Origin: Candidatus Syntropharchaeum sp.
GTDB taxonomy: Archaea > Halobacteriota > Syntropharchaeia > Syntropharchaeales > Syntropharchaeaceae
Direction: 5' to 3'
Assembly (NCBI GenBank): GCA_026134025.1
Contig: JAOQII010000005.1
Location: forward strand, 594-64,593
Length of the DNA stretch: 64,000 nt
Below, piece by piece: positions 20,024 through 30,437 of the stretch. The notes below the pieces were generated by a model that saw only the letters and a list, made by a program, of their open reading frames with translations, searched no databases and had not been told where the DNA came from. Made by a program: the position numbers and the translations under genes. The stretch's first letter is position 1, and each line of letters begins with the position of its first letter.

Positions 20024-22027
20024 ATGGATATTGTAATAATAACTACGGTCATCGGTTTAATCGCATTGATCGCTGCAGGAGTCCTATCATTTGGCGTGTT
20101 AAAAAAAGAGAAGGGATCTGAGGAGATGGTCAGGATCTCTGATGCGATACACGTCGGCGCGATGGCGTACCTGAATCGCCAGTATAAAACGATCGGTGCG
20201 CTTGCCGTTATCCTTTTTGTAATTCTTTATTTTGCGATAAACTCGCAAACAGCGATTGCTTTCGCTGCAGGAGCAGTTTTATCAGCTCTTGCAGGATATA
20301 TCGGGATGAATATATCGGTTAGGGCGAATGTTAGAACCGCGAATGCTGCCAAGAATGGTTTAAAAGATGCACTCACGATCGCTTTCAAGGGAGGGGCGGT
20401 GACAGGCTTATGTGTTGCAGGGCTTTCGCTTGCAGGTGTCAGTCTCTTCTACTACATATACCGCGATCCGATCCTTGTTGTCGGCTTTGGGTTTGGAGCA
20501 TGTCTTATCAGTCTATTTGCCAGGATCGGTGGTGGAATATATACAAAAGCCGCTGATGTGGGGGCAGACCTTGTTGGGAAGATCGAAGCAGGGATTCCGG
20601 AGGATGATCCCAGAAATCCAGCCGTGATCGCTGATAATGTCGGTGACAATGTCGGAGATTGTGCTGGTATGGGAGCAGATCTATTTGAGACGTATGCAGT
20701 GACCGCGATCGGGGCGATGCTTCTTGGAGATTTGCTGTACCCGGGTTTAGAAGCTTATATCCTGTATCCACTCGTTCTCGGGGCGGTCGCGATAATAGCT
20801 TCAATAATTGGTATCTTTTTTGTGAGGCTCGGTAAGCGCGAGAATATAATGGCAGCACTCTACAAGGGACTTCTCGCTTCAGGTGTGCTTGCCGCGATCG
20901 GGTTCTATTTTGTGACATCGTGGTTAATTCCTGCTGAAGATGTATCTGGATTATTCATTGCGACATTACTTGGTCTTTTGATCGCGATTATACTCTTTGT
21001 AATCACAGAATACTACACCTCAACGGGTTTTAATCCCGTGGTCAAGCTTGCAGAGTCTGCCCAGAGTGGTTCAGCAGTTACAATCATAAACGGGCTTGCA
21101 CTTGGGTTCGAAGCTACTGCATTGCCTGTCCTGATTATATGCGGTGGTATAATTGGATCATTCTATTTTGGTGGGGGGCTTTACGGTATTGCGATCGCTG
21201 CGATGGGCATGATCTCACTTACAGGTGTGATTATCGCACTCGACTCGTACGGTCCGATCACCGATAACGCGGGTGGCATCGCCGAGATGACAAACCTCCA
21301 CGAGGATGTGCGAAAGGTGACAGATGCGCTGGATGCGGTTGGAAACACGACAAAGGCGGTTACAAAGGCATTTGCGATAGGTTCTGCAGGACTTGCTGCG
21401 GTGACGCTCTTTGTGGCTTATGTCCAGGAACTTGAGAATGTTGGGTTAAATCTCATATTTGAGCTTCAGGATCCGCTCGTTGTGGTGGGACTTCTGATCG
21501 GTGGACTTATACCATTTTTATTCTCTGCAAGGTGCCTGAAAGCTGTCGGAAATGCCGCATTTGATGTGGTCGATGAGGTCAGGCGACAGTTTAGAGAGAT
21601 AGAGGGAATAATGGAAGGAACTGGAAAACCAGATTATGCAAGGTGTGTAGATCTCGTGACAAGAGCTGCGTTGAGGGAATTTGTGGTTCCTGGTGCGATT
21701 GCTGTCATCTCACCAATTCTTGTTGGGTTCATACTCGGACCTGTGGCACTCGGTGGACTGCTTCTCGGCTCGATCATTACAGGGCTTCTTCTTGCACTTC
21801 ACATGGCAACAGCAGGTGCTGCATGGGATAACGCAAAGAAATACGTGGAGGACGGACATCTCGGAGGAAAAGGATCGGATACGCATAAAGCCACGGTTGT
21901 TGGCGATACAGTTGGAGATCCATACAAAGATACAGCAGGTCCTGCCATAAATCCGCTGATAAAGGTTATGAACACCCTTGCCCTACTTATGGCAGGCGTG
22001 ATTGGATCAGGTTTGATCCTCATGTGA
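20024..22027 (+). CDS. hppA: membrane-bound proton/sodium-translocating pyrophosphatase
   Basis: 667-aa polytopic protein with the [18 protein letters not shown] and [20 protein letters not shown]-PPase signatures. Confidence 0.9.
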
Positions 22028-22037
22028 GGACGTGAAG

Positions 22038-22598
22038 ATGTACTTCAAGACACGATTGATAAACACGGTAAGGGTTCCACCAGATCTTCTCGGATGTGAA
22101 CTGGATCTTGTGATAAAGGATCTCCTCTGCGAGAGTCTGGAGGGGAGGATCAATAAGAAACTTGGTATGATCGTGGTTATAATCAATCTTGTCGAGATCG
22201 GCGAGGGAAAGATTTTAACAGGGGACGGTGGAATCTATTATGAAACGACATTTGATGCACTCGTTTACAGGCCTCAGATACAGGAGCTTGTCAAGGGGAG
22301 GGTTGTTGAGATTGTAAACTTTGGAGCGTTCGTTGAGATAGGACCAATGGATGGGCTTGTACACGTCAGCCAGATCTCTGATGATTTCATATCGTACGAT
22401 GAGAAGAACGGGCGTCTTGTATGCCGGGAGAGTAACAGAGCGATTTCTGTGGGAGACGGTCTCATGGCACGTATCGTCGCAGTGAGCCTGAACGAGACAG
22501 ACCCGGGCGAGAGTAAGATCGGACTTACGATGCGGCAACCAGCACTCGGCAAGTTTGAATGGATAGAAGAAGATAGAAGGAGAGCTGAGAGTGACTGA
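22038..22598 (+). CDS. rpoE: DNA-directed RNA polymerase subunit E' (Rpo7)
   Basis: MYFKTRLINTVRVPP N-terminus, S1/OB domain, and the gene is followed by spt4. The second ATG is preferred over the tracked start. Confidence 0.8.
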   Translation: MYFKTRLINTVRVPPDLLGCELDLVIKDLLCESLEGRINKKLGMIVVIINLVEIGEGKILTGDGGIYYETTFDALVYRPQIQELVKGRVVEIVNFGAFVEIGPMDGLVHVSQISDDFISYDEKNGRLVCRESNRAISVGDGLMARIVAVSLNETDPGESKIGLTMRQPALGKFEWIEEDRRRAESD

Positions 22599-22789: not shown

Positions 22790-24457
22790 ATGAGTGAGAT
22801 CCTTTTCATCGATTTTGCAGAAGTTTGCAGTAAGATAGAGGAGCTATCTGGATCAATCGCAATAACAGAGATTGTATCGGATTTTTTCAAATGCCTGGAT
22901 GACGATGAACTGTCTATAGCTTCTCATTTTATAATGGGGAAGGTATTTCCAGAGTGGAGTCCGTATGAGATGGGGGTTGGTCCAGGCCTCCTGTACGAAG
23001 CTGCAAAACTTGCATACACCGTGGGAAAAAACGAAATAAACGACATCCTCAGAAGTACGGGTGATATTGGAAGAACATTTCAAGAATTATCGAAGCGGCG
23101 TACGCAGCAGACGCTCTTTGTCGAGAAACTTACAATAAAGAGCGTCAATGCAAGTTTTGTTGAGATCGCAAAGAGAGAGGGAAAAGGGTCACAGAAGATG
23201 AAAATCCGATTGCTTGCTGACCTTTTTCTTCAGGCAACTCCTCTTGAGGCGCGATACCTTGCAAGGCTCGTTCTCGAGGAGTTGAGGATCGGGGTGGGCG
23301 AGGGGATCGTGAGAGATGCGATCGCAAGGGCTTTTGAAGTAGATGTTCGGCTTGTTGAGCGTGCACTGATGATTACAAACGATCCTGGCGTTGTTGCGAC
23401 ATTTTCAAGAAATTATGGTAACGATGGGCTTGAATCGGTGGAACTTTATCCGATGAGACCTGTCAAGATGATGCTTGCCCAGGTTGCAGAGGGGATCGAG
23501 GATGCACTCACACAGATCCCTTCGCCTGCCATTGAATGGAAGTTTGATGGAACACGGGTTCAGATTCATAAGTACGATGGCGAGATTAAGATATACTCGA
23601 GGAAACTTGAGAACGTGACAAAGTCCATCCCTGAGATTGTAGCGGTTGTGAAGCGTGAGTTCGTTGCAGATAGTGTGATCCTTGATGGAGAGGTGATAGC
23701 GATCGATGAAGATGGAAAGCCGAGACCTTTCCAGGATATTTTGCGGCGATTCAGGCGGAAGTACCGGGTTGAAGAGATGCAAAACTTAATTCCACTTCAT
23801 CTTCACATTTTTGATATACTCTACCTTGATGGAAGAACACTTATAGATCTCCCCTTAAGCGAGCGTCGCCAGATTCTTGAGAAAATTGCAGTTTCAGGTG
23901 ATGCACCGATCGCAGAACATTATCTTGTAGAAGACGTCAGTGCGATCGAGACGATCTACAATGAAGCGATCGATGCAGGTCATGAAGGCGTCATGGTGAA
24001 GAATCGGGATTCGAGATACACCCCTGGTAAGCGGGGGAAGAACTGGCTAAAGATTAAGCCGTTGATGGAGACACTTGATCTTGTGGTTGTTGGTGGAGAA
24101 TGGGGAGAGGGGAGACGGGCAAATTTAATCGGATCATACACACTCGCATGTCTTGACCCCGAGCGTGATAAACTCCTTAAAATCGGGCGTGTCGGGACAG
24201 GGCTAACGGATGAGAAGCTTCTTGAGTTCACAGAGATATTCTCTGATCTCGTAATAGGGGAGGATGGATCTGAGATTGTATTTAAGCCAGCGATCGTGTT
24301 TGAGCTGGCTTATGAAGAGATCCAGAAGAGCACGAAGTATGATTCAGGATACGCGCTGCGGTTCCCGAGAGTAATCAGGTTGAGGGAGGATAAGTCTGTG
24401 GAGGATGCAGATACGATCGAGCGGGTTGAACGTCTCTATAAAAAGAGGTTTGAATGA
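22790..24457 (+). CDS. lig: ATP-dependent DNA ligase
   Basis: KxDG adenylation motif (EWKFDGTRVQI) and OB-fold C-terminus. 555 aa. Confidence 0.9.
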   Translation: MSEILFIDFAEVCSKIEELSGSIAITEIVSDFFKCLDDDELSIASHFIMGKVFPEWSPYEMGVGPGLLYEAAKLAYTVGKNEINDILRSTGDIGRTFQELSKRRTQQTLFVEKLTIKSVNASFVEIAKREGKGSQKMKIRLLADLFLQATPLEARYLARLVLEELRIGVGEGIVRDAIARAFEVDVRLVERALMITNDPGVVATFSRNYGNDGLESVELYPMRPVKMMLAQVAEGIEDALTQIPSPAIEWKFDGTRVQIHKYDGEIKIYSRKLENVTKSIPEIVAVVKREFVADSVILDGEVIAIDEDGKPRPFQDILRRFRRKYRVEEMQNLIPLHLHIFDILYLDGRTLIDLPLSERRQILEKIAVSGDAPIAEHYLVEDVSAIETIYNEAIDAGHEGVMVKNRDSRYTPGKRGKNWLKIKPLMETLDLVVVGGEWGEGRRANLIGSYTLACLDPERDKLLKIGRVGTGLTDEKLLEFTEIFSDLVIGEDGSEIVFKPAIVFELAYEEIQKSTKYDSGYALRFPRVIRLREDKSVEDADTIERVERLYKKRFE

Positions 24458-25125
24458 AGATACGAAGGCCTTATGTCGTGATGATCTCAGAGGTCACGGT
24501 GGATGGTAAGCTCACGCTCAAGCGCGGGATGTCAAGCAAGATCATCATGTCCGTGATGGATGAGGAGGCTGATATTTACCTCCACCGTGAGCGTGCAAGA
24601 TCAGATGCGATCATGGTTGGTTGCAACACAATAAAGATCGATAACTCATATCTCACGGTTAGGTATATCGAGGGAGCAAACCCGATAAGGGTGATACCCT
24701 GTAGTAATGCCGATCTACCGCTGGATTCAAATGTCCTGAAAGGGGATGCGCCGACGATAATAGCGGTCTCAGAAGCTGCAAAAGAGGAGAACGTTGAGCA
24801 TATCCGATCAATGGGAGTTGAAGTCTGGATTTGCGGTGAGAGAAAAGTTGATCTCGTGCTACTTCTTGAAAAACTCTTCGAGCGAGGTGTTAAAAGACTC
24901 ATGCTTGAGGGTGGTCCCACACTTGCGTGGGAGATGATCAATAAGAGGCTCATCGATGAGGTGAAGCTTATTCACATGCCTTTTATTGTTGGAGGCTGGG
25001 ATACACCAACGCTCTTTGGGGGCGAAGGTGTTGGTGAGCTAAATAAGGTAATCCATGCAGAGCTTGAGCGGTATTTTCTATGCGGGAAGCATCTCATAAC
25101 AGAGTACAGGGTGGTATATCAATGA
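24454..25125 (+). CDS. 2,5-diamino-6-ribosylamino-4(3H)-pyrimidinone 5'-phosphate reductase (RibD C-terminal domain, DHFR-like)
   Basis: Archaeal riboflavin or F420 pathway reductase family (RibD_C fold; VDGKLTLK...MLEGGPTL). Confidence 0.65.
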   Translation: MKIRRPYVVMISEVTVDGKLTLKRGMSSKIIMSVMDEEADIYLHRERARSDAIMVGCNTIKIDNSYLTVRYIEGANPIRVIPCSNADLPLDSNVLKGDAPTIIAVSEAAKEENVEHIRSMGVEVWICGERKVDLVLLLEKLFERGVKRLMLEGGPTLAWEMINKRLIDEVKLIHMPFIVGGWDTPTLFGGEGVGELNKVIHAELERYFLCGKHLITEYRVVYQ

Positions 25126-25718
25126 GTATAGAAGCAGGATTGAGAAGTGAAGTGGACAGAAAAGGTGATACAAGCTTGAAGATCGCATGGGGAATCACGG
25201 GAAGTGGAGATAGGATAGAAGAGACCGTCGAGTTTATGGAACAGATAAAGGAGAGGTACAATCTTGATATAGTTCCCTATGCATCGAAGGAGGGGGAGGT
25301 AGTCTTAAAATTCTACAAGCTTCTAAATAGAGTTAAGGAAGGTTTTCCAGGATATAAAGTTGAGCGAAGTTCAAACGCCCCATTTCTTGCAGCAAAACTC
25401 CAGATGGGTGAGTATGACCTCTTTATAATCTGTCCTGCGACCGCAAATACCGTTGCAAAGATCGCACACGGGATCGCAGACTCCCTCCTATCAAACTCTG
25501 CTGCTCAGGCGATGAAAGTGGGAGTTCCTGTCTACATTTATCCGGTTGATCAGAAGGTGGGAGAGATGACAACGATCCTGCCTGACGGGCGGGAGATGAA
25601 GCTCAAGATACGGGAAGAAGATGTTAAAAATACCGATGCACTCCGCGATATGGAAGGGATGACGGTATTAAATACGATCGATGAGATAGAAGGAGTTGTT
25701 TCAGAATGGAAGAAGTGA
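25122..25718 (+). CDS. afpA: archaeoflavoprotein AfpA (flavoprotein, CoaC-like fold)
   Basis: KIAWGITGSGDRI ... CPATANTVAKIA motifs of the Flavoprotein family. Start set at the ATG at 25122 inside the longer tracked ORF. Confidence 0.65.
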   Translation: MSIEAGLRSEVDRKGDTSLKIAWGITGSGDRIEETVEFMEQIKERYNLDIVPYASKEGEVVLKFYKLLNRVKEGFPGYKVERSSNAPFLAAKLQMGEYDLFIICPATANTVAKIAHGIADSLLSNSAAQAMKVGVPVYIYPVDQKVGEMTTILPDGREMKLKIREEDVKNTDALRDMEGMTVLNTIDEIEGVVSEWKK

Positions 25719-26596
25719 AGATGGAAACGGCAGAGGTTGAGGGAAGAGCTGTTCAGTGGGATCCGACACAGCTTCGGAAGATACAATCGCACCCATGTTT
25801 CAGCAAAGAGGCGATGCACCTTTTTGGAAGGATACATCTACCTGTCGCACCAAAATGTAATATCCAGTGTAATTACTGTGTTCGTAAGTTTGATTGTGTG
25901 AATGAGTCGCGACCAGGTGTTACAAGCACAATCTTAACGCCAGAGGAGGCTGTTCATCGAGTAAGAGAGGTTATCAAGGAGCACCATTACATAAAGGTCG
26001 TTGGGGTTGCAGGGCCTGGTGAGCCGCTCTTCAATGAGGAGACCTTTGAGACGTTCAGGCTCGTTAAGGATGAGTTTCCACAGCTTCTCAGGTGCATCAG
26101 CACAAACGGACTTCTTCTTCCAGAACGAATCGAGGATCTTGATGAGATCGGTATAAGCACGGTCACAGTCACGATGAACGCCGTAGATCCCACGATCGGT
26201 GAAAAAATATACACATTCGTTGAGTATGAAGGAAAAAGATACAGAGGAAGGGAGGCAGCAGAGATCCTCCTTGAAAACCAGCTTAAGGGGATAGAAGAGG
26301 CTTTGAAGCGGAAGATGATCGTCAAGGTGAATACTGTTTTAATACCGACTGTAAATGAAGATCACATCGTAGAAGTTGCAAAGAAGGTCGGTGAGATGGG
26401 TGTATACCTGCAGAATGTCCTTCCCCTGATCCCACAGTATAAGTTCAAGGATATCACACCGCCAGGCCCTGCTGATAAGAAGCGGATTCAGGATGCCTGT
26501 GAGCCTTATGTCAGGCAGATGACGCATTGCAGGCAGTGTCGGGCTGATGCGATCGGAAAACTCGGAAAGGATCTTAAGGGATGCTGGGAGAAGTAG
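25706..26596 (+). CDS. NifB-family radical SAM protein (stand-alone radical SAM domain)
   Basis: HPCFS...AHxxFGRIHLPVAPKCNIQCNYCVRKFDCVNESRPGV is the NifB N-terminal signature with the CxxxCxxC cluster. 296 aa, the minimal archaeal NifB size. Confidence 0.75.
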   Translation: MEEVKMETAEVEGRAVQWDPTQLRKIQSHPCFSKEAMHLFGRIHLPVAPKCNIQCNYCVRKFDCVNESRPGVTSTILTPEEAVHRVREVIKEHHYIKVVGVAGPGEPLFNEETFETFRLVKDEFPQLLRCISTNGLLLPERIEDLDEIGISTVTVTMNAVDPTIGEKIYTFVEYEGKRYRGREAAEILLENQLKGIEEALKRKMIVKVNTVLIPTVNEDHIVEVAKKVGEMGVYLQNVLPLIPQYKFKDITPPGPADKKRIQDACEPYVRQMTHCRQCRADAIGKLGKDLKGCWEK

Positions 26597-26674
26597 AAAA
26601 CTGAGATCCCTTCTCAAAAGAAAGTATTCTCAATACCGAAAACTTTATGGAGAGAAAGGTTACATTCAATCATT

Positions 26675-28009
26675 ATGAATGATGCGGATCAGGTCACGAT
26701 ATACAACGATAGAGGAGATCCTCTTGCAGAAGATATACCGATTGATGCACTGAGCCCATACCGGAATCAGGCTATCAGAGCGATCCTCCATACATTGAAG
26801 CGTACCGCTATAATCGATTTAAACAAGCTTGAGACCTCACTGAGAAATGGCAGTGTGGGAAATACAATGGCTATCGGTGGTGAATGCAGGATACCGGGCA
26901 GAGAAGTTGATCTACCGATCAAGGAACATGCTGATTCTATCGCGGATCGGGTGCTTGGGATGCTCAGGGTCTCGGATGATGATGACGCAATGGTTGAGCG
27001 GCTCGATTCCTTACTCATCGTCCAGATACCGTCTCTCGTTGTTGCAACTGGAACAGGATACACGCAGGCATATTTGCTTCCAGCAACCGCGCTTGCCCAT
27101 GCGATCATCGATGAGTTCGATCTCGGGATATTCGATGGTGTGGATATGATCAAATCCGCGATCATGGGCAGGTACCCACAGACCATTGAACCATCAGGTG
27201 GGGCAGTCTCGATGCTCATCTCGTTTCCTTCGAGTGTCGAGGGGGCAGGGGTTGGGTACCGATCACTCTCTGTCAATACGATCGTTGCTTTAACCCACAG
27301 AAGGACCTTTGATGCGGTTGCCTTAAGTTCGGTACTTGAGCATGCAGCAGCGTTTGAGTCGGGTGCCGCGATGGGTCCCTACAGGCGTTATCATCTCATG
27401 GGCATGGCTTATCAGGGATTCAACGCAGGGAATATGGTCTATGAACTTGTGCGAGATCATGGAAAGGGTACAGTTGTTGATATCATCGAGGATGTTATCG
27501 CTCGTTCGATCGAAGATCGTGTGATCAAACTTGAGAAAGAGCTCCCCTCAGGGTATGGTATGTACTCGGCATCTGATGCATCGATGTGGAACGCTTATGC
27601 ATCTGCAGGCCTTCTTGCTACAGCGATCCAGAACGCAGGTGCATCAAGATCTGCTCAGGGTACGCCGTCTGCGATGCAGTTCTACGCCGATCTTCTTGCG
27701 ATGGCAACATCCCTACCTGAAGTTGATTTTGGAAAGGTGATCGGGACCGCGATGGTCTTCAACTGGCTAACGCATAATTCTTATGGGGGTGGTGAGGTCG
27801 GGATCTTCTCTGGTGAGCATGTGGTAACCAAAGGCTCGAAGGGCTTTATAATGCCGTGTGCCGCTGCTTCGATGTGTCTCGATGCTGGTACGATGATGTA
27901 TATGCCAGAGGTCACATCAAAGAATATGTTCAAGCTTACAGAGGTTCTTCCAAGCCTACAGGATCCATTTTCACGGATTGCAGAGGCTGCAAAGGAGATT
28001 GGGGGTTAA
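26675..28009 (+). CDS. mcrB: methyl/alkyl-coenzyme M reductase beta subunit
   Basis: 444 aa, collinear with McrB (…LSPYRNQAIRAIL…, …MGPYRRYHLMGMAYQGFNAGN…, …KGFIMPCAAASMCLDAGT…). Confidence 0.85.
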   Translation: MNDADQVTIYNDRGDPLAEDIPIDALSPYRNQAIRAILHTLKRTAIIDLNKLETSLRNGSVGNTMAIGGECRIPGREVDLPIKEHADSIADRVLGMLRVSDDDDAMVERLDSLLIVQIPSLVVATGTGYTQAYLLPATALAHAIIDEFDLGIFDGVDMIKSAIMGRYPQTIEPSGGAVSMLISFPSSVEGAGVGYRSLSVNTIVALTHRRTFDAVALSSVLEHAAAFESGAAMGPYRRYHLMGMAYQGFNAGNMVYELVRDHGKGTVVDIIEDVIARSIEDRVIKLEKELPSGYGMYSASDASMWNAYASAGLLATAIQNAGASRSAQGTPSAMQFYADLLAMATSLPEVDFGKVIGTAMVFNWLTHNSYGGGEVGIFSGEHVVTKGSKGFIMPCAAASMCLDAGTMMYMPEVTSKNMFKLTEVLPSLQDPFSRIAEAAKEIGG

Positions 28010-28012
28010 AGC

Positions 28013-29677
28013 ATGCCAAAAAAATCGATCGAGATCATAAAGGAGACGTTCAAGGAGGATGATGCAACCCGCGAACGTACATCATTCTATGAGTTTGGAG
28101 GGTGGAGGCAATCACGGCGTAAGCAGGAGTATGTCAAGCTTGCAAAGGATCTAATCGAAGAGCGAGGACTCACCGGTTATCAGGGAGATCGAGAGGATAT
28201 GGGCGTGCCACTGGGCCAGCGGTTCATCGAGCCATACTACATCTCGGGAACAGATGTTTTATGTGATGGTGAGGATCTCCACCAGGTCAACAACGCGGCG
28301 ATCCAGCAGATGGGTGATGATATCAAGCGGACCGCGATCTCAGGGCTTGATATGACACACAGGATGCTTGAAGTCAGGATCGGAGCTACAGTGACGCCAG
28401 AGACGATAAACAGGTATCTTGAGGTTGCAAATCACACGATCGTCGGTGGTGCAGTTGCACAGGAGCACATGGCAGAGATCAACCCTGCGATGACCCGGGA
28501 TGGATCTGTGAAGATCATGAGCGGGAATGAGGAACTCATGTCGCACATCGATAAACAGTACATCATCGATATAAACAGGGAATATCCAGCCAATCAGGCA
28601 GAAGCGTTGAAAGAGGGGATCGGAAAATCGATATATCAGGTTGTTAGAGTCCCGACTGTTGCTGTTAGAAACGCAGATGGCGGGACAACACATAGATGGG
28701 CTGCAAACCAGTGCACGCTCGGCTTTATAACCGCGTACGCGCTGGGTGGCGGGTCAATCCTTGCTGATTTCTCATTAACCTCAAAGCACATGCAGTATGT
28801 CACGCTCGGAACACCCACGTGGCCCAGACGGGGTCCAAGAGGTAAGAATGAACCTGGAGGCATTCCCTATGGGTATGTTGGGGACTTCTGCCAGGCCGAT
28901 GCTGCAGGTTCTGATGAGATCACATATTTCTGTGAGTCGATGGCACTCTCAAACTTCCTCTACCTCAATCTCTGGGTCAATGGGTATGTGATCGGTGGGA
29001 TAGGTGGTGTGCACGCCGGGGCTGTTTTATTCACGAACAACGTACTTGATGAGCTTGCAGGACACATCACAGACTGGATCGTGGATCGCTATGGTGGACT
29101 GGCAAAGGCCAAGCCGTCATTTGATGTGATAAGAGACGTCTGTCATGAGGCATGCTTCCATCTCCTGGAGGAATATAATCGGTATCCACTCCTTTTAGAG
29201 CACCACTGGGGAGGAGCGATACGGATGTTCATCCTTTCCACATTGGGTGGGATGGCTCCTTCGTTTGCAACAGGGCACTCGCTCGCCGGGATGATCGGCT
29301 ACCACTATACAGGTGGGTATCTCATGAAGGAAGCATGGGGCAGGGGGTCGTTCGGCTCACAGGACTCGGTGGATCACATGAACCTCGCCTACGCAGCTTC
29401 AATGGTACCTGATGAGGGACTTCTTCCCGAGTTGAGAGGACCAAACTTCTCAAGTGACTCGACAAATGCGATTGTCCAGTGCACAAGCCCATCGTACGCC
29501 GTGGCAGCCCACGCAGCTCGAAAGGATGCATGGTGTTTGAGTCCAGTGGTTAAAGTGGCATTCGCAGACTCAAAGCTACCATTTAATTTCAAAGAGGTTC
29601 GCAAGGAGATCGCACGTGGCACCCAGCATGAGTTTATGCCAGAGGGTGATCGCGACCCGATAAAACCAGGGAGGTGA
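28013..29677 (+). CDS. mcrA: methyl/alkyl-coenzyme M reductase alpha subunit, divergent
   Basis: 554 aa, collinear with McrA throughout (FYEFGGWRQSRRKQEY…, VAQEHM retaining the axial Gln, GKNEPGGIPYGY, PELRGPNF, VKVAFAD). The canonical FYGYDLQDQCG segment is replaced by SFGSQDSVDHM. Confidence 0.85.
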   Translation: MPKKSIEIIKETFKEDDATRERTSFYEFGGWRQSRRKQEYVKLAKDLIEERGLTGYQGDREDMGVPLGQRFIEPYYISGTDVLCDGEDLHQVNNAAIQQMGDDIKRTAISGLDMTHRMLEVRIGATVTPETINRYLEVANHTIVGGAVAQEHMAEINPAMTRDGSVKIMSGNEELMSHIDKQYIIDINREYPANQAEALKEGIGKSIYQVVRVPTVAVRNADGGTTHRWAANQCTLGFITAYALGGGSILADFSLTSKHMQYVTLGTPTWPRRGPRGKNEPGGIPYGYVGDFCQADAAGSDEITYFCESMALSNFLYLNLWVNGYVIGGIGGVHAGAVLFTNNVLDELAGHITDWIVDRYGGLAKAKPSFDVIRDVCHEACFHLLEEYNRYPLLLEHHWGGAIRMFILSTLGGMAPSFATGHSLAGMIGYHYTGGYLMKEAWGRGSFGSQDSVDHMNLAYAASMVPDEGLLPELRGPNFSSDSTNAIVQCTSPSYAVAAHAARKDAWCLSPVVKVAFADSKLPFNFKEVRKEIARGTQHEFMPEGDRDPIKPGR

Positions 29678-29681
29678 AAAG

Positions 29682-30437
29682 ATGATCTATCCAGGTGATG
29701 ATAGAATCGCAAAAAGGCGCAGGGCGATACTCAATAAAGATACAGCATTAAAGCAGCTGCGGGAGGTTGCAGACGAGGATCTCGTCATGATTCTTGGGCA
29801 CAGAAACCCAGGGGAGCGGTACTCGTCCGTACATCCCCCACTTGATGAGCTTAAAGAAGCGGAAGATCCAATAAGAGACCTTATAGAAGCAACTCCTGGT
29901 GCGAAAGGTGGTGACAGGATAAGATACGTCCAGTTCACAGACTCGGTCTACCACTCTCCAATAACCCCGATCTTCAGGGGCAGGATGTATCACATACGCT
30001 ACCGTGGGGCAGATACAGTAGCATACTCTGGAAGGGAGCTGATGGAAGCGCGGGAGCGGGACCTTGAGAAATATACGAAGGAGCTTCTTGAGACCGAAAT
30101 TTTTGACCCTGCAAGAACAGCGATTCGGGGTATCACGGTACACGGTTCCGCGATGCGACTCGATGAAGATGGGCTTATGTTTGATGCGAGGAGACGGTAC
30201 AGGTATGATAAAGACGAGAACACCGTGATCTACTCTAAAAATCAGATGGCGATCCCGATCGATAGATCGATCTCACTCGGCTCACCCAGAGATGAAGAGG
30301 ATCTCAAGGCTGATTCGATAATCTATGGACTTGATACCATAGGTTACAGGGATGCAGAGGAACTCTGGGAGGTTACAGGAAAGCTCATGGAGGATAACGT
30401 GAAGGGCGGGTTGAACCCGAAGTGGGTGGAGAGGTGA
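29682..30437 (+). CDS. mcrG: methyl/alkyl-coenzyme M reductase gamma subunit
   Basis: 251 aa, McrG-like (ILGHRNPGERYSSVHPPLDE…RYVQFTDS…YRGADT…RERDLEK…LLETEIFDPAR…HGSAMRLDEDGLMFD). Confidence 0.85.
   Translation: MIYPGDDRIAKRRRAILNKDTALKQLREVADEDLVMILGHRNPGERYSSVHPPLDELKEAEDPIRDLIEATPGAKGGDRIRYVQFTDSVYHSPITPIFRGRMYHIRYRGADTVAYSGRELMEARERDLEKYTKELLETEIFDPARTAIRGITVHGSAMRLDEDGLMFDARRRYRYDKDENTVIYSKNQMAIPIDRSISLGSPRDEEDLKADSIIYGLDTIGYRDAEELWEVTGKLMEDNVKGGLNPKWVER

Follow-up and report, generated by a model that had tools for sequence, protein, structure and literature searches.

The closest described counterparts of the gene considered here are the minimal NifB proteins of methanogens and the complex that activates methyl-coenzyme M reductase (MCR). 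NifB belongs to the radical S-adenosylmethionine (SAM) enzymes: its radical-SAM cluster cleaves SAM, the methyl group is passed to the K2 module and, after hydrogen abstraction, the K1 and K2 modules fuse round a carbide to give an [8Fe-9S-C] cluster (PMC6053413; PMC10701300). The cysteine triads of the SAM, K1 and K2 clusters were assigned by Rettberg et al. for the protein of Methanosarcina acetivorans. NifB is present in all 245 methanogen proteomes and also in methanotrophs and alkanotrophs, and it is essential in M. acetivorans (Saini et al., bioRxiv 10.1101/2023.10.20.563283). The MCR activation complex contains three L-cluster-like centres, in whose origin NifB is "probably involved" (Ramirez-Amador et al. 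2025, PMC12176620); their ligands are C12, H49, C55 and H118 of McrC together with H84 and C143 of Mmp7 (2026 review, PMC13474568). That 2025 structure raised the question of which enzyme builds the L-cluster, and NifB is the obvious candidate, though not a demonstrated one. Here we describe a nifB gene that ends 78 nt before an MCR-like operon in a 64,000-nt stretch of archaeal DNA (the window; positions 594 to 64,593 of contig JAOQII010000005.1, assembly GCA_026134025.1). The host is a third, undescribed species of Candidatus (Ca.) Syntrophoarchaeum, a relative of the butane-oxidiser; its genome is referred to below as G000 and those of its two congeners as G001 and G002, the latter being Ca. 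Syntrophoarchaeum butanivorans BOX1.

Like the methanogen minimal forms (6Y1X; 7BI7 and 7JMB from Methanothermobacter; M. acetivorans NifB), the window protein has about 300 residues and consists of the radical-SAM domain only, with the same CxxxCxxC and K1/K2 cysteine spacing and with the HPC, ESRPG, AGPGEP, TNG and CRQCRADA motifs kept. Unlike the methanogens, the host oxidises alkanes, has four alkyl-coenzyme M reductases (ACRs) and lacks nitrogenase, and the gene lies between afpA and an ACR operon, a context absent from the 38 other loci examined. Every component of the activation complex described in PMC12176620 is encoded in G000, with the six McrC and Mmp7 ligands conserved, and nifB occurs there without nitrogenase, as in many methanogens (bioRxiv 10.1101/2023.10.20.563283). 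The two systems differ in that nifB of Methanothermobacter marburgensis follows the mmp gene cluster (PMC12176620), whereas the window gene abuts reductase structural genes and the window holds no mmp, mcrC or A2 genes; moreover, the activation complex of PMC12176620 is known for MCR, whereas the reductases of G000 are ACRs. With a probability of about 0.72, we consider that nifB is a housekeeping gene rearranged to a position before one ACR operon that has a promoter of its own, and that its L-clusters would reach the McrC/Mmp7 activation complex in trans.

NifB, nitrogenase and the activation complex

The nifB gene (25706-26596, plus strand; ATG at 25706, TAG at 26594-26596) encodes a minimal form, the radical-SAM domain without the NifX domain. 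Its product scored 377.8 bits against TIGR01290 (cut-off 343.65), the match covering positions 4-279 of the 441 of the model with the NifX-like C-terminal part absent; it also scored 450 bits against the crystallised NifB of Methanothrix thermoacetophila (6Y1X) and about 289 bits against the Methanothermobacter structures. In an alignment with 22 homologues, Cys31, 51, 55, 58, 64, 130, 265, 275 and 278 were all invariant; they make up the triads C51/C55/C58 (CxxxCxxC, SAM), C31/C64/C130 (K1) and C265/C275/C278 (K2), which are those of the M. acetivorans protein (C50/54/57, C30/63/129 and C264/274/277) shifted by one. The HPCF, CNIQCNYC and NESRPGV motifs, by which a first-pass annotation made from the sequence had recognized the protein, are all present. 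The gene is single copy in G000 (one match). A maximum-likelihood tree built from 44 NifB sequences placed the window protein, a 93%-identical metagenomic relative and the proteins of G001 and G002 in one clade (support 100/99), sister to that of the ANME-1 archaea. The identity scores, the conserved cysteines, the single copy and the tree placement indicate that this NifB is a single, ordinary, vertically inherited housekeeping orthologue and not a paralogue gained with the reductase operon.

In the same tree, NifB of Ca. Argoarchaeum (GoM-Arc1) nests within the ANME-1 clade and not with the Methanosarcinales-type sequences. Two further families of this class, f2 and f6, have very divergent NifB proteins, which show 49-53% identity, sit on a long branch and score below the TIGR01290 cut-off. 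One ANME-1 genome (G018, 93% complete) retains just a 39-residue C-terminal nifB remnant upstream of afpA (L092, G018:C33, 7195-7311) and has no other nifB match; the remnant could be a pseudogene or masked sequence.

The first-pass annotation had stated that nitrogenase genes are missing, and we found none in the window; the search for nifHDK elsewhere in the genome, which it had recommended, gave none either, nor did the two congeners. The sole member of the Oxidored_nitro (NifD/K/E/N) family in G000 is CfbD (TIGR03282, 450 bits), encoded beside cfbE, and the best NifH-family match is an archaeal MinD; in G001 (95% complete, 10 contigs) and in G002 the NifD/K/E/N family is likewise represented by a CfbD-like match alone. 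The gene cfbC, for the NifH-like reductase of F430 synthesis, was not found in G000, where cfbD and cfbE are present on contig C56; it is present in both congeners (337-350 bits), and its absence from G000 is most likely an assembly gap. It is the genus-level result, from three genomes, that carries the weight for the absence of nitrogenase. As to what would speak against a functional link, the first-pass annotation had named a nifB adjacent to nitrogenase genes in related genomes and never associated with mcr. Neither half was seen: over 1 Mb separates nifB from nifDKEN in the two diazotrophic relatives checked (from a family with Methanosarcina-like complete genomes), yet its association with mcr cannot be called "never", as seen below.

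The putative recipients of the NifB product are at hand in G000, which encodes McrC (C19; TIGR03264, 273 bits), Mmp7 (C34), Mmp3 (C34), Mmp17 (C38) and A2; in an alignment to chains I and H of PDB 8S7V, McrC and Mmp7 retain 6/6 L-cluster ligands. In the mechanism that we propose, nifB closes a compact lig-ribD_C-afpA-nifB unit, which a lineage-specific rearrangement would have set before one of four ACR operons, with mcrBAG keeping its own promoter. The radical-SAM cluster of NifB would fuse the auxiliary [4Fe-4S] clusters K1 and K2 round a SAM-derived carbide to form the [8Fe-9S-C] L-cluster and, without a NifEN or NifDK acceptor, McrC and Mmp7 would most likely receive it. Joined by Mmp3, Mmp17 and the A2 ATPase, they would form the complex in which F430 is reduced to Ni(I) and MCR-type enzymes are thus activated; here it would serve all four ACRs in trans. 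We infer this destination of the L-cluster from the literature on NifB and the activation complex and from the presence in G000 of clients with all six ligands, which together make supply in trans the best-supported reading.

That NifB serves the reductase is an already published working model (PMC12176620; bioRxiv 10.1101/2023.10.20.563283). The first-pass annotation had left the choice between a maturation factor and mere synteny, and each proved half right: the adjacency is incidental, and service to the reductase corresponds to that model; such service would take the indirect route through the McrC/Mmp7 clusters, and not that of modifying the Ni-tetrapyrrole cofactor, which it had also raised. 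The window thus adds just an anecdote, an ACR organism without nitrogenase that keeps a canonical nifB together with McrC and Mmp7 with intact ligands, and in this way extends the NifB/activation-complex model from methanogens to ACR organisms. The gene is an ordinary orthologue within an established family, and its host is an undescribed species in a genus already known.

G000 carries the A2 ATPase gene in three full-length copies (C98:18-1592, C63:1010-2584 and C88:17968-19491) beside four ACR operons, and they might reflect paralogue-specific activation. In G001, nifB is divergent from, and two genes away from, a gene for an A2-like double ABC ATPase (L023, G001:C4, 5722-10843), whose product scored 500 bits against TIGR03269, slightly below the cut-off of 517, and shares only about 36% identity with A2 from the three G000 genes; the riboflavin genes ribB and that of the CTP-dependent riboflavin kinase adjoin it.

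Position of nifB relative to the reductase operon

The layout given by the first-pass annotation was exact: afpA, the minimal nifB and the MCR-like operon are co-oriented, afpA overlaps the start of nifB, and nifB stops 78 nt before the mcrB ATG at 26675. To establish how widely this arrangement is shared, the coordinates of nifB and mcrB were compared in 41 genomes of the class, and 40 further nifB regions were sampled across the phylum; an open reading frame (ORF) for nifB was recognizable in 39 of 44 loci, window included, and the neighbours around these 39 loci, up to four predicted ORFs on each side, were clustered. The expectation that the neighbourhood would be conserved in genomes with the same MCR clade was not borne out, since both congeners have nifB and the BAG operon on separate contigs: nifB is on C4 and the four mcrB on C1, C2, C3 and C8 in G001, while in G002 nifB is on C2 and mcrB on C3, C4 and C7 (two copies). 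The orthologous BAG operon is preceded by a KaiC-like ATPase gene in G001 and by a divergent TldD gene in G002. Only the contig with the 93%-identical NifB shares the exact synteny of the window from the pyrophosphatase gene to mcrA. An mcr gene lay within four predicted ORFs of nifB in 2/39 loci, the window and the ANME-1 genome G025, where nifB is 2.6 kb from mcrBGA in convergent orientation. Thus, nifB lacks the conserved co-location that marks operon-linked MCR accessory genes of the mcrC/mcrD kind.

The adjacency of nifB and mcrB is an incidental, lineage-specific accident in a much-rearranged genome, because it is absent from the congeners, from Ca. Argoarchaeum and from nearly all ANME-1 genomes, and because mcrB seems to own a conserved promoter. 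As the position is peculiar to the lineage, NifB itself is ordinary and, not being conserved, the adjacency is unfit as gene-context evidence for a link between NifB and the reductase.

Elsewhere the neighbourhoods of nifB varied. In Ca. Argoarchaeum and relatives an oxidative-stress cluster is followed by a flavodiiron protein gene and then nifB; in ANME-1-like metagenome-assembled genomes (MAGs) a nifU-type scaffold gene and a gene for a small NIR_SIR protein precede it. A conserved queC-DUF366-queE-queD-nifB-AIRS cluster, with preQ0/archaeosine genes, was found in five genomes of one family that has Methanosarcina-like complete genomes (L058-L062).

The promoter attributed to mcrB emerged from an alignment of four sequences upstream of this gene, those of the window, G001, G002 and the 93% relative. 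A block resembling an archaeal B recognition element (BRE) plus TATA box, CCGAAAAC-TTTATGGA (26636-26651, plus strand), begins 39 nt before the mcrB ATG; its conserved core, CGAAA(A/G)C(T/C)TTA(T/A) (26637-26648), is gap-free and, in each of the four aligned sequences, begins 38 nt ahead of the ATG. Farther upstream the sequence is unrelated in G001 and G002, and the upstream genes differ too. We infer that the block is the promoter of mcrBAG itself; from its position, the mRNA of this presumably highly expressed operon would have a very short leader or none. Reading of the 78-nt spacer (26597-26674, plus strand) revealed no oligo-T tract and no terminator, and a scan for sigma-70 promoters and intrinsic terminators, a method not applicable to archaea, gave no more matches than shuffled sequence.

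Several points weigh against the housekeeping gene acting in trans. Immediate, co-oriented adjacency is rarer than chance for one gene named beforehand (0.2-0.4% per genome at a rough estimate), and the junction is kept in two relatives, G000 and the 93% contig, so that weak selection for it is possible. The promoter of mcrBAG is deduced solely from conservation, and the spacer has no oligo-T terminator, so some read-through from nifB to mcrB is possible. G000 is 92.5% complete and misses cfbC, which makes absences in this genome alone soft. Finally, the role of NifB as the maker of the McrC/Mmp7 clusters stands at "probably" in the literature (PMC12176620). Part of this would fit co-transcription of nifB with the ACR operon of the window, by which the supply of L-cluster would rise with the synthesis of the reductase and nifB would be a dedicated maturation gene like mcrC or mcrD. 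The shared orientation, the gap of just 78 nt without an oligo-T tract, the persistence of the arrangement in the relative with 93% NifB identity, the lack of mcrC and mcrD in the BAG operon of the window and the nifB located 2.6 kb from mcrBGA in one ANME-1 genome all agree with such coupling in cis. We nevertheless hold it to be unlikely: no nifB lies near the orthologous operon of the two congeners, a single-copy nifB must serve the whole cell, the promoter-like block before mcrB is conserved regardless of the gene upstream, nifB is translationally coupled upstream to afpA and ribD_C but not to mcrB, and the ANME-1 case, being convergent, cannot be an operon.

NifB might instead supply a nitrogenase or nitrogenase-like enzyme that escaped detection, its genes lying in the 7.5% of the genome that is not assembled; the assembly is indeed incomplete, with cfbC demonstrably missed. 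This is very improbable, however, as G001 and G002 likewise hold nothing of the NifD/K/E/N family but the CfbD-like member, and NifB is universal in MCR-bearing archaea with or without nitrogenase (bioRxiv 10.1101/2023.10.20.563283). Hardly any credence is left for a NifB that acts directly on the cofactor or on the reductase itself, say by radical-SAM methylation of F430 or of a residue of the alpha subunit. The protein is an orthologue 70-79% identical to those of methanogens, Argoarchaeum and ANME-1, whose cofactors differ, it keeps all carbide-synthase ligands, and the adjacency of nifB and mcr is not conserved; neither tetrapyrroles nor proteins are known substrates of any NifB. Modified F430 variants do occur in related alkane-oxidising archaea. 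The chemistry of NifB, moreover, opens with the transfer of a methyl group from SAM (PMC6053413; PMC10701300). Overall, supply of L-clusters in trans by a housekeeping nifB remains the reading that we prefer.

Linkage of afpA, nifB and sufCB

The conserved feature of the locus is the afpA-nifB pair and not nifB-mcr. The afpA gene (25122-25718, plus strand), encoding an archaeoflavoprotein that binds flavin mononucleotide and has the HFCD fold, extends from the ATG at 25122 to the TGA at 25716-25718, with other possible starts at ATG 25080 and GTG 25152; it overlaps nifB by 13 nt, an overlap that the alternative nifB ATG at 25721 would abolish. The product belongs to TIGR02699 (227.1 bits; cut-off 192.45) and to the Flavoprotein (HFCD) fold family PF02441 (92 bits), and a WGITGSGD-type motif is invariant in the AfpA alignment. 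AfpA proteins from Syntrophoarchaeum-type contigs share 89-91% identity with it, and a protein of "Ca. Syntrophoarchaeum sp. GoM_oil" shares 89%.

When the coordinates of afpA and nifB were compared across the genomes of the class, afpA directly preceded nifB in two of the three Syntrophoarchaeum genomes (G000, window 25122-26596; G002:C2:103328-104708) and in 4/4 genomes of a second family (G003:C168, G007:C299, G010:C19 and G013:C98). In one ANME-1 genus it comes after nifB instead, within about 50-700 nt, in three genomes (G009:C42, G017:C26 and G029:C16), while a fourth, G018, has the nifB remnant only, by afpA; in five further ANME-1 genomes afpA is 6-9 kb from nifB. On a "Methanosarcinales archaeon" contig (L094:4001-5399), afpA overlaps a 74%-identical nifB. 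In all, three families of the class have the pair, often beside sufCB.

Within the genus the linkage extends to the suf genes. S. butanivorans carries sufC-sufB-afpA-nifB (L024, G002:C2, 7523-10822), with the pair in the same order and orientation as in the window and with 75% (NifB) and 72-73% (AfpA) identity to the window proteins; there, sufCB precedes the pair and an STT3 glycosyltransferase gene follows it, whereas the pair in the window is flanked by ribD_C and mcrBAG. G001 has kept sufC-sufB-afpA (L086, G001:C1, 7998-10440), with nifB elsewhere, beside purQ, the A2-like ATPase gene and riboflavin genes, while G000 has kept afpA-nifB, with sufCB on another contig (G000:C2:9722-11633). 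The ancestral order in the genus appears to be sufC-sufB-afpA(-nifB), which would have been broken at sufB/afpA in G000 and at afpA/nifB in G001. A Bathyarchaeia contig carries sufC-sufBD-rubrerythrin-FMN_red-afpA. No nifB or suf genes were found among the afpA neighbours in a Methanoperedenaceae genome, and the radical SAM gene that follows afpA on a Theionarchaea contig was rejected as nifB for want of significant similarity.

AfpA has been reported to accept electrons from ferredoxin, and its function is not settled. The recurrent linkage of afpA, nifB and suf hints at a joint role of AfpA with NifB and the assembly of Fe-S clusters, in which it could plausibly carry electrons at low potential. 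We tentatively put forward, as a possibility rather than an expectation, that AfpA is the physiological low-potential electron donor or partner of NifB, perhaps in a line from SufBC through AfpA to NifB that feeds the activation complex of MCR and ACR. A complex prediction for NifB and AfpA scored 0.00 which, being run without controls, counts neither for nor against binding. The sufCB-afpA-nifB arrangement is the more useful lead from this locus, as it nominates a testable reductant or partner for archaeal NifB; it also bears on the reconstitution of NifB activity in heterologous hosts.

The alkyl-CoM reductases of the host and the surrounding genes

The window lies on contig C45 of the G000 assembly, which comprises 98 contigs (1.76 Mb) and is 92.5% complete. 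Four mcrA and four mcrB copies were found in G000, hence four MCR-like (ACR) operons. The operon of the window consists of mcrB/acrB, for the beta subunit (26675-28009; PF02241 and PF02783; TIGR03257, 444 bits, below the cut-off of 516), mcrA/acrA, for the alpha subunit (28013-29677; PF02745 and PF02249; TIGR03256, 564 bits, below the cut-off of 768), and mcrG/acrG, for the gamma subunit (29682-30437; PF02240, 320 bits), all on the plus strand in the order B-A-G and together matching all MCR Pfam domains. The reductase belongs to the divergent MCRs, with alpha and beta subunits below the equivalog cut-offs for canonical MCR and three subunits orthologous to a published S. butanivorans set. Identities are 80% (B), 76% (A) and 78% (G) to the orthologues of G001, and 81% (B), 86% (A) and 79% (G) to those of S. 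butanivorans BOX1 (contig03, which corresponds to G002:C3), the order being B-A-G in both; the operon is therefore one of the ACR sets already described for the genus. A search of genome contigs with McrB returned three loci, that of S. butanivorans and those of two Halobacteriota MAGs at 56% identity. An ethane-type reductase (ECR), an idea prompted by the closest named NifB being that of Ca. Argoarchaeum, was rejected: McrA scored 324 bits against ECR (7B1S) and about 500 bits against canonical MCRs, and the four mcrA are orthologous to the S. butanivorans sets.

A run of co-oriented genes on the plus strand was seen in the list of ORFs and in the sequence itself; it goes from the H+/Na+-pyrophosphatase gene (20024-22027) through rpoE (22032-22598), an ATP-dependent DNA ligase gene (22790-24457), ribD_C (24454-25125), afpA and nifB to mcrG. 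The ligase gene and ribD_C overlap by 4 nt, as do the ribD_C stop and the afpA ATG. The ribD_C product is a RibD_C-type pyrimidine reductase of the archaeal riboflavin pathway (PF01872, 164 bits; TIGR01508, 174 bits, slightly below the cut-off of 186). Past mcrG, and convergent with it, lie a DUF362/ferredoxin gene and then a 2-oxoacid:ferredoxin oxidoreductase operon.

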